Part shown: positions 54,963 to 61,453 of the stretch, in pieces
Numbering within the stretch: the first letter of the stretch is position 1
Layout of the letters: each line of letters starts with the position of its first letter
DNA from: a virus
Taxonomy: Duplodnaviria > Caudoviricetes
Virus record (IMG/VR): IMGVR_UViG_3300027805_000006
DNA length: 64,000 nucleotides
Reading direction: 5' to 3' (one strand)
Program-made: the position numbers and the translations under genes
Notes under the pieces: generated by a model
What the model saw: only the letters and a program-made list of their open reading frames with translations
Database searches by the model: none
What the model was told of the DNA's origin: nothing

Positions 54963-55037
54963 TGGTTGCGGACCCTGGAGTCGCACCAGGTATCTCTTGG
55001 TTATGAGCCAAGCGGATTACTGTCTTCCTCGCCCGCA
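54963..55037 (-). tRNA. tRNA-Met(CAT), T-loop TGCGACT
   Basis: Acceptor TGCGGGC/GTCCGCA-A-CCA; CTTGG-CTCATAA-CCAAG. Confidence 0.85.
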
Positions 55038-55633: not shown

Positions 55634-55709
55634 TGGTCAGCCCACCCTGAGTCGAACAGGGAACACAAATTTAGAAGAATTGTATCATTTCCAGTTTCAC
55701 CATGGGCTG
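55634..55709 (-). tRNA. tRNA-Arg(TCT), degenerate D arm (possible pseudogene)
   Basis: Acceptor CAGCCCA/TGGGCTG-A-CCA; loop CT-TCT-AA; weak D and anticodon stems. Confidence 0.65.
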
Positions 55710-55768: not shown

Positions 55769-55844
55769 TGGTCTCCCTGCCCAGATTCGAACTGGGACCC
55801 CATGAACCCAAATCATGAATGCCACCTGGTAACACTTCAGAGAG
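55769..55844 (-). tRNA. tRNA-Pro(TGG)
   Basis: CATGA-TTTGGGT-TCATG; acceptor CTCTCTG/CAGGGAG-A-CCA. Confidence 0.85.
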
Positions 55845-55906: not shown

Positions 55907-55981
55907 TGGTCAGAGCACCTGGAGTTGAACCCGGACGACTCCGCTCCAAACGGAATTGGCTACAATACGCCTCCTACCCTG
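55907..55981 (-). tRNA. second tRNA-Pro(TGG), more divergent
   Basis: TTCCG-TTTGGAG-CGGAG; acceptor CAGGGTA/TGCTCTG-A-CCA. Confidence 0.75.
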
Positions 55982-56063
55982 TTGATAAATATGGGCCCCA
56001 AGTACTTATAGACGGTGTCTATGTTCCCATTCACGTTCCAAGCTTTCGCTCCGAAATTTTGTG

Positions 56064-56150
56064 CTCCGTCCCGAGGTTACGATCCTCGCATGCATTCCTG
56101 CATCCTTCCGGTTAACAGCCGGAGGCCTTCACCAAGCCAGCCCGGACGGA
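56064..56150 (-). tRNA. tRNA-Asn(GTT) with long variable arm and ATCGTAA T-loop
   Basis: TCCGTCC/GGACGGA-G; TCCGG-CTGTTAA-CCGGA; extra ATGCA-GGAA-TGCAT hairpin; no CCA. Confidence 0.8.
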
Positions 56151-56627: not shown

Positions 56628-56707
56628 TGGTAGGCGCACTGGGACTCGAACCCCTGGCCTTCTGCGTGACAGGCAGACGATCTAACCAACTGATCTAACG
56701 GTGCCCT
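56628..56707 (-). tRNA. tRNA-Asp(GTC) with disrupted acceptor and T stems (possible pseudogene)
   Basis: D and anticodon arms canonical (TCTGC-CTGTCAC-GCAGA); acceptor pairs only with bulges. Confidence 0.65.
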
Positions 56708-58662: not shown

Positions 58663-58737
58663 TGGTAGGCCCAGTTGGAATCGAACCAACACTCCGGGCA
58701 TTATGAGTACCACGCTTTACCATTAAGCTATAGGCCC
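58663..58737 (-). tRNA. tRNA(CAT), Ile2-like or elongator Met, nested inside the split tRNA
   Basis: GGGCCTA/TGGGCCT-A-CCA; loop CT-CAT-AA. Confidence 0.88.
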
Positions 58738-59052
58738 ACAAAAATTATCTCTACGAATACTTTCGATATGCTCTTTACGAATTACTATCAGTTTTTTTGG
58801 AAAATACTTCCATTTTGCTTTATCTCGTTCTGTTTCGTATCCTTTTACTTCAATGTAAGCATCTAAATTGGGCAAATAGAAATCTGGAAAATATTTACGA
58901 ATGCCATTCCATTCATATTCAAACCATTCGTTTGAACGAATTATTGGTATTGATTTTTGAACACAATATTGATAGAATTCAAGTTCCCATTTTCCTTGAA
59001 ATTTTATTCCATCGTATATTATTTGTTTAGTTCTACCTCTATTAGATGAGGT
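58723..59052 (-). CDS. PD-(D/E)xK-type endonuclease, probably lacking its N-terminus
   Basis: KYFPDFYLPNLDAYIEVKG; the only in-frame ATG (59130) lies inside tRNA-Arg; the stop lies inside tRNA(CAT). Confidence 0.75.
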   Translation of the reverse strand, partial: TSSNRGRTKQIIYDGIKFQGKWELEFYQYCVQKSIPIIRSNEWFEYEWNGIRKYFPDFYLPNLDAYIEVKGYETERDKAKWKYFPKKLIVIRKEHIESIRRDNFCGPIA

Positions 59053-59090
59053 TTTTAGAGTCCTCTGCTCTCCCACTGAGCTAACGGCCC
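59053..59090 (-). pseudogene. 5' half of an interrupted tRNA (anticodon reads CTA)
   Basis: GGGCCGT-TA-GCTC-AGTGGGA-GAGC-A-GAGGA-CTCTAAAA. Confidence 0.8.
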
Positions 59091-59097
59091 GAAATAA

Positions 59098-59173
59098 TGG
59101 CGCGACTGGAGCGATTCGAACGCCCGACATACCGGGTAGAAGCCGGTTATTCTATCCCCTGAATTACAGTCGC
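59098..59173 (-). tRNA. tRNA-Arg(TCT)
   Basis: ACCGG-CTTCTAC-CCGGT; CCA. Confidence 0.92.
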
Positions 59174-59263: not shown

Positions 59264-59737
59264 TTACCGCAGCAGCATCTTTAACGCATCTACTGCTACC
59301 TCAAAAAACTCAGTTTCTACTGCCACTGCCTTCGAGATCATTAGGTTCTGCTTTAGTCCAAATGGCTCAGGAAGAAAGTCGCTTCCTTCAGCCGGGTACT
59401 TATCTAGGAACTCCTCTATTCGCTGTTTGTACGAAGAGAAGACAGGATTTGAATATGTCACAATAATTTTGTTAAGTGCCTTAGCGTATCCAATTTCAAA
59501 TACTGTTCCACTGTCGGGCTCGGTGCCGTGAAATGGAGAGACATTTGCAAGAACAGCATCGCACCTTTGGATGAGTTCAATATTTGCAGCGTAAATTTCT
59601 CCTGCATCAGATAAGGCAGTATCGAGCGGGCTGAGAGGAATCATCCCGTGTGCACGTACCACCTTGGCTTTCTTTGCGAGCACCTCTGCTGCATTTTCAA
59701 GAAAGACATCCGGGCCAGCGAGATAAACAGTCTTCAA
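59264..59737 (-). CDS. nucleoside 2-deoxyribosyltransferase family protein
   Basis: VYLAGPDVF, CDAVLAN..PF.G.EPDSGTVFEIGYA, NLMI; TTG start with AAGGAG SD. Confidence 0.9.
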   Translation of the reverse strand: MKTVYLAGPDVFLENAAEVLAKKAKVVRAHGMIPLSPLDTALSDAGEIYAANIELIQRCDAVLANVSPFHGTEPDSGTVFEIGYAKALNKIIVTYSNPVFSSYKQRIEEFLDKYPAEGSDFLPEPFGLKQNLMISKAVAVETEFFEVAVDALKMLLR

Positions 59738-59817
59738 TTTATTCTCCTTCAGGGGTGCAAAAACAGAGTACTACCTGCTGCAGGCAGAACTGACGAGAGT
59801 AGTTTGACTTAGATAAC

Positions 59818-60241: not shown

Positions 60242-60318
60242 TGGTACCCACGGTTGGATTTGAACCAACGACTTCCACCTTATCAAGATGGCACTCTAAC
60301 CAACTGAGTTACGCGGGT
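60242..60318 (-). tRNA. tRNA-Ile(GAT)
   Basis: CCATC-TTGATAA-GGTGG; CCA. Confidence 0.93.
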
Positions 60319-60334
60319 ATAATTGAAATTTGTG

Positions 60335-60412
60335 TGCCCTAGGCGAGACTCGAACTCGCACCCGAAGACTGGCTTCTAAGACCAGCGTGTCTACCAATTC
60401 CACCACCAGGGC
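60335..60412 (-). tRNA. tRNA-Leu(TAG)
   Basis: CTGGT-CTTAGAA-GCCAG; short variable arm; no CCA. Confidence 0.9.
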
Positions 60413-60420
60413 TTGTAAAT

Positions 60421-60664
60421 GCCGGTTACGTAGTTCCGGCACCCTCCATTCGCCAAGGGCCGTCAGCGGCCAGTTACGCATCTGGCTTGCTGGGATTAAG
60501 CAACGCCTGCCTTGCGGCTAGTCTTCCCCCAGGTCCCACTGGGTATATCGCCGGTTACGCGATCCGGCTTAGGGTACATCACCATATGGACTGATCAGGT
60601 CCGCCCCGGTCACCTAACGCTTATATACGGGATGGTGGATTGACATACCTGGCCAATCAGCAGG
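60421..60664 (-). ncRNA. unidentified GC-rich structured RNA
   Basis: No convincing ORF; at least 7 hairpins, three closing CGUAA-ending loops. Confidence 0.7.
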
Positions 60665-60683
60665 TTATTAAATTTATCTATAC

Positions 60684-60747
60684 CATATTGAAGCACACTG
60701 GGGGATTCGAACCACCTATCTGTCGGCATCAATCATTTAGTGCCTCA
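60684..60747 (-). ncRNA. small tRNA-like RNA with T arm and closing stem
   Basis: UGAGGCAC/GUGCUUCA stem; GGUGG-UUCGAAU-CCCCC; 3' end AGUGUGCUUCAAUAUG. Confidence 0.55.
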
Positions 60748-61155
60748 TGATTCTTCTCTATTGCTAGTCATGCTATGATTACCCTTGTTTACTGTTACCT
60801 TGTCTTTATCGACAACAACAGTCATGGGTTCATTCGCCTCGTCTAGACGCTGAATAAGTTCATTTATAACCTTAAATTCAGGTTTTTCTTCTTTTTCTTT
60901 TGATCCAGTAATGCTTGCTAACATTGTAATCAATGCCATTACCGCGGTAGAAACTAATCCTATAACAGCAGGCAAACTATCGCTTGGAAGAAACGCACTA
61001 GAAACAACACCTACAATGACTAGTAATACTATCCATGGTATAGCAGTTTTGCCTATAATTTTGCTACTTACTTCCTTAGCAGTGTTTTGCTGCTCCATCT
61101 TCCTAAGTTCTATTATTGCTTGTGTTTTTAATAATTGCAATTCTTTGTCAGCCAT
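60745..61155 (-). CDS. two-TM membrane protein (holin-like)
   Basis: IPWIVLLVIVGVVSSAFL and LPAVIGLVSTAVMALITML. Confidence 0.7.
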   Translation of the reverse strand: MADKELQLLKTQAIIELRKMEQQNTAKEVSSKIIGKTAIPWIVLLVIVGVVSSAFLPSDSLPAVIGLVSTAVMALITMLASITGSKEKEEKPEFKVINELIQRLDEANEPMTVVVDKDKVTVNKGNHSMTSNREES

Positions 61156-61219
61156 AATAAACTCCTAAATACTCTCTTATATTTATTTAGTTTTTAGGAA
61201 AATTATCTACTGATATAAA

Positions 61220-61292
61220 CATATTGAAACACACTACCGCAAACTTCCAATGCACGATGCAGTCTATGGCATCCGTAATGTGCGTCAATATT
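61220..61292 (-). ncRNA. small three-way-junction RNA related to 60684..60747
   Basis: ~15-bp closing stem AUAUUGACGCACAUU/AGUGUGUUUCAAUAU; inner GAUGC/GCAUC hairpin. Confidence 0.55.
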
Positions 61293-61293
61293 G

Positions 61294-61366
61294 CGCCCCA
61301 GACCGGATTCGAACCGATGTGAACGCCGTGAAAGGGCGCTATCCTTGGCCACTAGATGACTGGGGC
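61294..61366 (-). tRNA. tRNA-Glu(TTC)
   Basis: GCGCC-CTTTCAC-GGCGT; no CCA. Confidence 0.92.
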
Positions 61367-61424
61367 AATATTGTATGTTTATTTTTAAAGAGCGTGCAGA
61401 CTTTTTAAATCTGCGTTAGAGGCT

Positions 61425-61453
61425 ATTATACAACAACCTCTAACTAATGTAAA
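61425..61453 (-). promoter_or_regulatory. strong sigma70/T4-early-type promoter for the tRNA array
   Basis: (G)TTTACA-17 nt-TATAAT. Confidence 0.8.

Follow-up and report, generated by a model that had tools for sequence, protein, structure and literature searches.

Three tandem copies of a predicted, uncatalogued H-type pseudoknot in the leader of a phage tRNA cluster

Introduction

The tRNA operon of bacteriophage T4 encodes, besides its tRNAs, structured and stable RNAs that are not tRNAs (species 1 and species 2, or RNA C and RNA D), which are presumably released by the tRNA-processing enzymes. In Escherichia coli, a spacer of the glyW-cysT-leuZ operon, 3'ETS-leuZ, is freed by tRNA processing and sponges small RNAs (sRNAs) on Hfq. 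Here, we describe an element found next to the tRNAs of an uncultivated tailed phage. The window that we analysed is a stretch of 64,000 nucleotides (nt), part of an 85.8-kb IMG/VR record (IMGVR_UViG_3300027805_000006) whose completeness is estimated by CheckV at 24%, and the source genome is that of a large, tRNA-rich phage. The element lies on the minus strand at 60417..60667, where sequence, G+C content and covariance-model matches delimit a non-coding leader with three tandem pseudoknot modules and accessory hairpins. It is preceded by a piece resembling the 3' half of a tRNA, and its 3' end is 8 nt upstream of tRNA-Leu(TAG) (60412-60334).

The element is like T4 species 1 and 2 in its location, as a structured non-tRNA RNA inside a phage tRNA operon. 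It differs from them, as far as the descriptions allow the comparison, in being modular, in consisting of a motif that occurs mostly outside tRNA clusters and in not being tRNA-shaped. With 3'ETS-leuZ it shares the position of a functional RNA spacer in a tRNA operon, but that RNA base-pairs with sRNAs on Hfq, and for the present element the likeness is one of location. GOLLD (RF01998) and ROOL (RF03087) are also phage RNAs often found near tRNA genes, yet they are single ornate folds of 500-800 nt, while our element is modular and measures about 250 nt. A likeness of working principle, with no homology implied, links the motif to the exonuclease-resistant RNAs (xrRNAs) of flaviviruses and plant viruses, to the hairpins of repetitive extragenic palindromes (REP) and bacterial interspersed mosaic elements, and to the RNase III sites of phage T7. 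Like the motif, an xrRNA is a small, sequence-constrained pseudoknot with its 5' strand tucked into a hairpin loop, and the resemblance to intercistronic stabilisers lies in positions after the stops of open reading frames (ORFs), ahead of start codons and a few nt upstream of RNase P sites. However, xrRNAs block the 5'-3' exonuclease Xrn1, an activity absent from most Proteobacteria, and the resistance of our motif is conjectural. In function the closest systems would be the intercistronic stabilisers and the xrRNAs, and by location the T4 tRNA-cluster RNAs and 3'ETS-leuZ.

Covariation across phages points to a compact pseudoknot

Direct reading of the minus strand gives three hairpins, GCCGG-AUCGCGUAA-CCGGC (hairpin 1, 60568-60550), GCCAG-AUGCGUAA-CUGGC (hairpin 2, 60486-60469) and GCCGG-AACUACGUAA-CCGGC (hairpin 3, 60440-60421), with exactly the positions and sequences given in a preliminary description that had been made from the sequence alone. 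Their clustering is not expected by chance. In related phage DNA (349 kb, both strands) we counted 35 hairpins with loops ending in CGUAA on stems of at least 5 bp, so that about 0.0075 such hairpins are expected per 150 nt, and three of them within 150 nt on one strand constitute an event of about 1e-7. The G+C content of the element is 0.55-0.61, as compared to about 0.25-0.45 in the flanks, and there is no credible ORF in the region. Minimum free energy folding of the single sequence was no better than that of shuffled sequences (z = -0.48); the absence of such a signal is to be expected, since the fold would be pseudoknotted.

In order to find related hairpins elsewhere, IMG/VR was searched with the exact 19-mer of hairpin 1 and then with the relaxed loop pattern GCCGG-N3-8-CGUAACCGGC. 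The exact search returned 10 loci that are otherwise dissimilar to the window, and relaxed patterns returned at least 100 loci per scan. Among the 109 unique matches listed in the first relaxed scan, 61 have a second helix, P1, which directly abuts the searched hairpin (P2) and is preceded by CG. These full-architecture copies share further features, again among the matches listed: the loop begins with A in 56 of the 61, the closing pair of helix P1 is G-C in 50, and the base 3' of helix P2 is A in 44. The remaining 48 matches show no enrichment of an A at the loop start, of a G-C closing pair or of a 3' A. The motif can thus be written as a pseudoknot of about 45 nt, 5'-C-N, then a variable hairpin P1 directly abutting GCCGG-A-N(1-6)-N'-G-UAA-CCGGC, usually followed by A.

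Next to the copies with CG before UAA, we scanned IMG/VR for loops in which AG, UG or GG replaces CG at this place. The dinucleotide 5' of helix P1 was found to track the loop dinucleotide: among the matches listed, AG occurs with CU in 24 cases, UG with CA in 21 and GG with CC in 13. About 10 matches deviate from this rule; by chance, 1/16 would agree with it. The CG class, whose loop CG pairs with a 5' CG, forms the fourth pairing class. Since the two dinucleotides change in step across phages, the 5' C-N pairs with the loop N'-G. On comparative grounds we conclude that the motif is a compact H-type pseudoknot in which helix P1 is inserted between the two pseudoknot strands; helix P1 probably stacks on the 2-bp pseudoknot helix.

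Other parts of the motif hardly vary. Helix P2 is almost invariant in the family, with a GCCAG/CUGGC variant present in other full-architecture copies that have a matching pseudoknot. The loop-initial A and the UAA scarcely change between phages that differ widely in G+C content and type (phage P1, the terminase-leader RNAs described below, a tRNA-rich phage). The loop is variable in length, 8-13 nt, and A/U-rich sequence commonly lies downstream of the motif.

The three hairpins of the window belong to the motif

We assessed the window copies with covariance model R1, which was built from 36 foreign copies and contains no window sequence, run unfiltered over both strands of the 64-kb window. 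Its top three matches are the three window modules: module 3 (60466-60417; 28.3 bits, E 4.3e-5), module 1 (60623-60546; 26.5 bits, E 1.2e-4) and module 2 (60509-60468; 11.7 bits, E 0.69). The low score of module 2 is explained by helix P2, which is invariant in the model and has a variant form in this module. Modules 1 and 3 carry the exact GCCGG/CCGGC, and module 2 carries the compensatory GCCAG/CUGGC. In all three modules the pseudoknot pairs CG with CG and helix P1 abuts helix P2 with no linker, and the loops AUCGCGUAA, AUGCGUAA and AACUACGUAA all start with A, end in N'-G-U-A-A and fall within 8-13 nt. The modules are not copies of one another, as their unit lengths are 42, 50 and 78 nt and their sequences differ. 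The closing pairs of helix P1 are U-A, U-A and G.U, as compared to mostly G-C in the family. A structure-only general scan of the whole 85.8-kb record found the full motif at these three sites only.

We are therefore highly confident that the element is an internal leader of a phage tRNA cluster, in which an uncatalogued, compact H-type pseudoknot module is repeated three times in tandem. Much of the preliminary description is borne out by these results. It had proposed a structured non-coding stretch inside a tRNA operon, which agrees with the high G+C content, the lack of an ORF and the R1 matches; a multivalent RNA, and there are indeed three repeated units; and an element adjoining tRNA-Leu, from which only 8 nt separate it. 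It had also made its proposal depend on covariation, which is strong in the foreign phage copies, and a covariance model derived from other phages recovers the window modules.

The loops are not free tRNA-elbow mimics

The same description had read the hairpin loops as echoes of the AUCGUAA T loop of the local tRNA-Asn and, from this, the element as a tRNA-elbow mimic. This part has to be given up. Because the dinucleotide before UAA pairs with the dinucleotide 5' of helix P1, as the four-way covariation across phages indicates, the loops are not free T-loop-like elbows. A T-loop mimic is further rejected by the loop lengths (8-10 nt in the window, variable between 8 and 13 nt in the family, as compared to 7 nt in a T loop), and a tRNA lies 5-11 nt downstream in only 7 of the at least 158 copies compiled below. 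As to a tRNA or T-arm mimic, neither ARAGORN nor the Rfam tRNA model finds anything between 60413 and 60690. The tRNA-Asn-like gene (56063-56150) carries CGUAA in its T arm with none of the other motif features, and the resemblance looks coincidental.

That gene is unusual in itself: it is a tRNA-Asn(GUU)-like gene of 88 nt on the minus strand, with a long variable arm and the unusual T loop AUCGUAA. It is one of five ARAGORN tRNAs that stay below the Rfam tRNA gathering score (56063-56150, 55634-55709, 55769-55844, 55907-55981 and 43323-43412), and Rfam in turn matches two tRNAs missed by ARAGORN (56635-56704 and 54967-55036). The tRNA complement of the phage thus includes several non-canonical members.

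The motif matches no catalogued RNA family

The lack of a known family, on which the preliminary description had also made its proposal depend, was confirmed with the Rfam models. With Rfam 15 only tRNAs were found in the window at the gathering score, and only tRNAs in 60300-61400 at E<=10. Scans of 36 foreign loci, at the gathering score or with E-value limits of 0.1 to 10, gave no Rfam family at the motif. BLAST of the element and of its 1.3-kb surround against 50,697 GenBank phages, in near and distant modes, gave no match either. No description of the motif was found in the literature searched by topic and by sequence string; a 2023 catalogue, which reportedly holds about 10,000 candidate viral RNAs, may contain it.

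Individual identities were also considered and rejected. A group I intron, tmRNA (including the permuted form), RNase P, signal recognition particle RNA and 6S RNA have no support from Rfam or ARAGORN, and no Rfam covariance-model match was obtained in the window for GOLLD, ROOL, PreQ1, hepatitis delta virus (HDV)-like ribozymes, Mu-gpT-DE or C4. An array of the ToxI type from type III toxin-antitoxin systems does not fit, as the units are not near-identical and tRNAs, not a toxin gene, lie downstream. An intrinsic terminator is predicted nowhere in 60413-60700, and helix P2 has 5 bp only, with an 8-10-nt loop engaged in the pseudoknot; a consensus terminator scan does flag helix P2 in one foreign locus (L568) owing to its U-rich tail.

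Architecture of the element and a homolog of its 5' part

The 5' part of the element, which we call unit A (60546..60667, minus strand, as are all parts that follow), comprises a 5' leader and module 1 and is defined by the R1 match and by a homolog. Its leader contains a GAUUG/CAAUC hairpin (60658-54 with 60642-38) and one strand of a long-range helix, CACCAU/AUGGUG (60637-32 with 60585-80). In module 1, the pseudoknot 5' strand C60619 G60618 pairs with C60559 G60558 in AUCGCGUAA. Helix P1 is formed by UUAGG (60617-13) and CCUAA (60573-69) around a 39-nt insert (60612-60574), which holds a GGAC-CUGAUCA-GUCC hairpin (60602-60588), and helix P2 by GCCGG (60568-64) and CCGGC (60554-50).

A spacer (60510..60545), for which homologs were not found, follows with two small hairpins in direct sequence reading, CCCAG-UGGGAC-CUGGG (60543-60528) and GCC-GCAA-GGC (60518-60509). 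In module 2 (60468..60509), C60505 G60504 pairs with C60478 G60477 in AUGCGUAA, helix P1 is UUGCU (60503-499)/AGCAA (60491-87), and helix P2, GCCAG (60486-82)/CUGGC (60473-69), has the compensatory G-C to A-U change. Module 3 (60417..60466), the best R1 match in the window and one of full model length, has C60462 G60461 paired with C60430 G60429 in AACUACGUAA, helix P1 of GCCCUU (60460-55)/GAGGGU (60446-41) and helix P2 of GCCGG (60440-36)/CCGGC (60425-21), after which A60420 and a 7-nt linker lead to tRNA-Leu. The minor hairpins listed in the preliminary description (CCCAG/CUGGG, GCC-GCAA-GGC, UUGCU/AGCAA at 60503-60487 and GGAC-CUGAUCA-GUCC) are all present.

A pattern derived from the conserved part of unit A identified one true homolog, in a metagenome contig (L560; R1 score 26.5 bits), which aligns with the window from UAACCUG to the end of helix P2 over about 118 nt. 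Here, the helix CACCAU/AUGGUG of the window is replaced by CACUAG/CUAGUG, and these two compensatory pairs strengthen the long-range pairing that had been proposed; L560 retains both UUAGG(G)/(C)CCUAA and the CUGAUCA loop. The CACCAU helix is crossed by helix P1 of module 1, so that unit A is pseudoknotted more than once. The second long-range pairing of the preliminary description, ACCCU/AGGGU, did not survive. Both of its strands are used by local P1 helices that fit the family model, and L560 keeps ACCCUAA though its sequenced stretch has no second or third copy. In L560, unit A is followed by a GC-rich terminator-like hairpin and a U run, as read from the sequence. Unit A is a conserved unit of about 120 nt, with a terminator-like hairpin after it in the one related contig found.

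Parts of the region were found in public freshwater data. One freshwater metatranscriptome contains a contig identical to the ORF region of the window (depth 8.8) and three diverged contigs that map to 60550-60667 (depths 265, 20 and 2.3). This is suggestive of transcription of the relatives' unit A and is not proof of it.

The loop CUGAUCA (hairpin 60602-60588) includes the 6-nt palindrome UGAUCA (a GATC site) and is invariant in unit A and its homologs, and an unrelated phage has it in the leader of a tRNA array (L568:1443-1466); it could mediate kissing-loop dimerisation. Hairpins with this loop are not generally linked to the motif, as they accompany 3 of the at least 158 copies.

The motif occurs at the boundaries of transcript units in other phages

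We compiled a set of at least 158 distinct copies with the full architecture. The stop of a same-strand ORF (at least 80 codons) lies at most 80 nt upstream in 52 of them, and at most 25 nt upstream in 25. Downstream, a Shine-Dalgarno sequence with a start codon follows at 19-31 nt in about 20 copies, a terminator-like hairpin within 60 nt in 15, and the start of a tRNA at 5-11 nt in 7 and at 36-44 nt in 3 more; other copies adjoin other non-coding sequence. The motif prefers unit boundaries, namely places after ORF stops, before start codons, at the 3' ends of sRNAs and at the heads of tRNA arrays, with the first tRNA 4-11 nt further on. A phage genome has one or two copies, clustered on one strand (two clustered copies occur in several other phages), and a prophage-bearing host genome has one.

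In phage P1 (NC_005856.1) one copy (69305-69347), in the ban operon, ends directly before trnA (tRNA-Asn), and a second copy (about 69687-69730), downstream of trnT, is antisense to the ORF annotated as plp. Also downstream of trnT, on the plus strand of this genome (L196, 69502-70200), stands a succession of long hairpins closed by stems ACAACAGGUAAG.../...CUUACCGUUGUG, and one of these hairpins encloses a T-arm-like GAGGGUUCGAAUCCCUAC. Because these hairpins and the motif lie antisense to plp ('putative lipoprotein') and upl, both ORF calls may be spurious. In another phage (L568), a promoter-like site precedes a leader of about 310 nt with the motif after it, and an array of nine tRNAs begins after a further 9 nt.

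The exact hairpin-1 sequence has its own context. At 9 of the 10 exact-match loci, the motif with this sequence forms the end of a conserved RNA of about 190 nt, which, in GC-rich phages, stands just ahead of terminase genes at 4 of the 5 loci whose flanking genes were scanned. This RNA (L004:2990-3200, L008, L010, L007, L005, L009) carries …ACAGCUUGGGC…GCCUCAGAUCGGA…CAUACAUCGGGCAUAACU…, and an Rfam match for it was not found.

Several subfamilies combine the motif with further sequence. In five loci (L086, L120, L095, L130, L077) it stands between a capsid-like gene and the next gene, and the helix P1 loop is complementary over 6-7 nt to the downstream Shine-Dalgarno region (CCCAUCC/GGAUGGG, CUCACC/GGUGAG), which suggests a lineage-specific translational control grafted onto the motif. 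A general anti-Shine-Dalgarno role of this loop was rejected, as the observed mean was 3.9 as compared to 3.7 in shuffles and the pairing is real only in that subfamily. In enterobacterial-type phages (L014, L028, L045, L060, L085, L277, L308, L386, L388, L394) the motif often has ACACAACAGGUAAGAGCA… downstream of it, which forms the 5' strand of a long hairpin; the 3' strand of this hairpin resembles the boxA-like UGCUCUUUCCGUUGUGGUGAA, and a small hairpin GCGCAGGCUGAUGCGC comes next. This arrangement makes a second uncatalogued module that recurs. Nine copies of the UG/CA class (L321, L369, L376, L389, L402, L413, L415, L431, L372) share the loop ACGCUGUAA and a conserved downstream GAAUGUCUCC, then a CCAGG…CCUGG hairpin, and these two appear to be another fixed partner module.

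In bacterial genomes, bona fide copies are found mostly in Proteobacteria, and the other matches of the genome scan arose by chance in coding sequence. We rejected a 48-nt 'tandem array' from a metagenome-assembled genome of Verrucomicrobia as an instance of the motif, as its composition looks like that of a protein-coding repeat. Sampling of 141 genomes of the order around a Pectobacterium match with R1 returned the seed only, with few candidates scored, and BLAST of the E. coli genome with one enterobacterial copy as the query gave nothing useful. Exact searches of IMG/VR with the module 2 hairpin gave no match.

The module as a candidate boundary element

The reading that we tentatively favour, though we stop well short of conviction, is that the module acts in cis as a boundary element in the polycistronic transcripts of phages. 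Its small and mechanically tight fold would halt exonucleolytic decay and/or fix endonuclease cut sites, and such a roadblock would insulate and stabilise the adjacent RNA unit. In the window, once RNase P had cut at the 5' end of tRNA-Leu, only an 8-nt tail would remain 3' of module 3. Three roadblocks in a row would then close the upstream RNA (the leader, perhaps with the mRNA of a membrane protein encoded upstream), which would persist in a stable form. The depth of the diverged unit A contig, 265 as compared to 8.8 for the ORF-region contig in the same metatranscriptome, speaks for a boundary role.

Several points weigh against it. The depth of a metatranscriptome contig proves neither transcription nor stability. 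What the comparisons show is the motif, its pseudoknot, its spread and its positions, while nuclease resistance, release by RNase P and stability are inferred. A pure roadblock has no obvious need for a near-invariant helix P2 and UAA, and conservation of this degree is no less compatible with recognition by a conserved protein or a ligand. With a terminator no more than about 15 nt further downstream, a 3' roadblock would seem to add little. Among the 149 copies of the compiled set with no tRNA start within 40 nt, about 100 also have no Shine-Dalgarno sequence with a start codon within 80 nt, and non-coding sequence lies downstream of them. The window modules themselves are off consensus in the helix P1 closing pair and the 3' base. 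Finally, in 65 relatives that share the 136-amino-acid (aa) gene found upstream of the element, neither the element nor a motif copy was present within the 3-kb flanks, so that the element is dispensable for the lineage of this gene; in the closest of these relatives, protein-coding DNA lies downstream of it.

Alternative functions of the motif

A protein partner is less probable than a boundary role but is a serious rival to it, because the near-invariance of helix P2, the loop-initial A and the UAA across very different phages suggests sequence-specific recognition. The RNA would in this case be a binding platform or decoy for a conserved protein of the proteobacterial host or of the phage, for instance to soak up a defence nuclease, along the lines of the preliminary description, or to recruit a protective 3'-end binder of the ProQ/FinO type. 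Each module would be a high-affinity site and the triple array a multivalent sponge or scaffold. The predominance of Proteobacteria among the bona fide genomic copies, the tandem triple in the window and the clustered pairs in several other phages would all suit such a role. However, the phages carrying the motif have no protein common to all, one or two copies in most phages are weak for a sponge, the positions beside ORF ends and starts suggest a role in cis, and the tRNA-elbow form of this idea is contradicted by the pseudoknot.

It is unlikely that the motif is a small riboswitch-like aptamer, in which a metabolite or an ion in the pseudoknot pocket tunes downstream translation, termination or processing. 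An H-type pseudoknot of about 45 nt with few invariant unpaired bases does recall the smallest aptamers, among them the preQ1-I riboswitch (RF00522), a very small H-type pseudoknot on a 5-bp hairpin, whose loop (UCGC.GUAAC) we take to be similar to that of hairpin 1. One copy lies upstream of a queC-like gene, one subfamily has the anti-Shine-Dalgarno sequence in its helix P1 loop, and terminators follow some copies. In preQ1-I, however, the loop pairs with a 3' A-rich tail, while the loop of our motif pairs with a 5' dinucleotide across an inserted hairpin, and a consistent context of que genes is missing. The downstream genes are mutually unrelated, the anti-Shine-Dalgarno pairing is not general, many copies stand before tRNAs or at RNA 3' ends with no expression platform apparent, and the Rfam models for PreQ1 and all other riboswitches were negative even at E<=10.

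Still less probable is an element of processive antitermination or pausing that acts in cis on the transcribing RNA polymerase, after the manner of the put RNA (putL/putR) of phage HK022. Like put, which is also absent from Rfam, the motif is a two-hairpin phage RNA in operon leaders (those of terminase genes, of ban in phage P1 and of tRNA arrays after promoter-like sites), and strong sequence conservation would suit the conserved surfaces of the polymerase. The likeness ends at the pseudoknot between loop and 5' strand and at the position of the many copies that are intercistronic, distant from a promoter, at RNA 3' ends or last before an apparently functional terminator. In the window, some 800 nt separate the element from the promoter-like site, and the first predicted terminator is at 59787. 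Homology to put was rejected, as R1 has no match in HK022 22-34 kb, which covers the immunity/put region.

We consider it very improbable that the motif is a new small self-cleaving ribozyme or a dedicated endonuclease site which punctuates transcripts. Hammerhead, twister and HDV-like (theta) ribozymes in phages sit beside tRNAs and between cistrons. The motif is sited in the same manner, it is a compact pseudoknot in which a few unpaired bases are invariant, and A/U-rich sequence commonly follows it, but it bears no likeness to known ribozyme cores, Rfam is negative and no cleavage site is marked in the sequence. The HDV-like string GGCGAAUGG is merely the helix P1 loop of module 3, and with the ACCCU/AGGGU pair unsupported an HDV-like ribozyme was rejected as an identity.

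Hardly any weight is left for a non-functional origin as degenerate T-arm remnants of tRNAs or as a horizontally spread, REP-like mobile DNA palindrome: although the local tRNA-Asn-like T arm also has a 5-bp GC stem with a CGUAA loop, and helix P2 is identical in unrelated phages and presumably resembles the start of E. coli REP elements, covariation that spans a variable hairpin is explained only by selection on a single-stranded fold, one or two copies per phage and one per host genome are not dispersed repeats, and ARAGORN and Rfam find no cloverleaf.

Neighbourhood of the element

A consensus scan found a promoter-like site TTTACA-17-TATAAT (11/12 consensus; 61425..61453, minus strand), where the operon probably begins, and a matching terminator-like site at 59787-59771; both are consensus matches only. 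On the basis of these two sites the element is probably internal to the operon, whose order would be tRNA-Glu, a small RNA, the 136-aa membrane-protein gene, the element, three tRNAs and a small ORF. The first of the three tRNAs, in a Leu-Ile-Cys cluster, is tRNA-Leu(TAG) (60334..60412, minus strand; found by ARAGORN, Rfam tRNA 57.7 bits). Two minus-strand ORFs, 58723-59130 and 59264-59737, sit among the tRNAs and have PHROG matches of the endonuclease/resolvase type (E 2e-19) and to nucleoside 2-deoxyribosyltransferase (E 9e-9), respectively.

The membrane-protein gene is flanked by two short RNAs on the minus strand (61282-61226 and 60745-60690), both of which end in AGUGUG(C/U)UUCAAUAUG and are able to pair with their own 5' ends; the second one encloses a T-arm-like GGUUCGAAUCC. 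An analogous unit with the closing stem ACACACUAG...CUAGUGUGUUUCG lies directly upstream of unit A in L560 (1250-1350).

Implications

A pseudoknot of about 45 nt with textbook covariation is common in phages and absent from Rfam. It is possible, though we regard it as doubtful, that it represents a new class of functional RNA fold and a portable part of Proteobacteria phages, either as an xrRNA-like roadblock to nucleases or helicases or as a high-affinity aptamer for a conserved host factor, whose triple array would be a multivalent decoy that protects phage RNAs or tRNAs in infection. For genome annotation, the motif explains gene-free, GC-rich gaps in phage genomes and casts doubt on ORFs called across such regions, plp of phage P1 being an example. 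As the motif is present in phage P1, directly upstream of trnA, its function is testable in E. coli. Since it sits at the junctions of transcription units, the way in which phages cut, protect or insulate the pieces of their long transcripts probably follows a general rule that is written in this motif.

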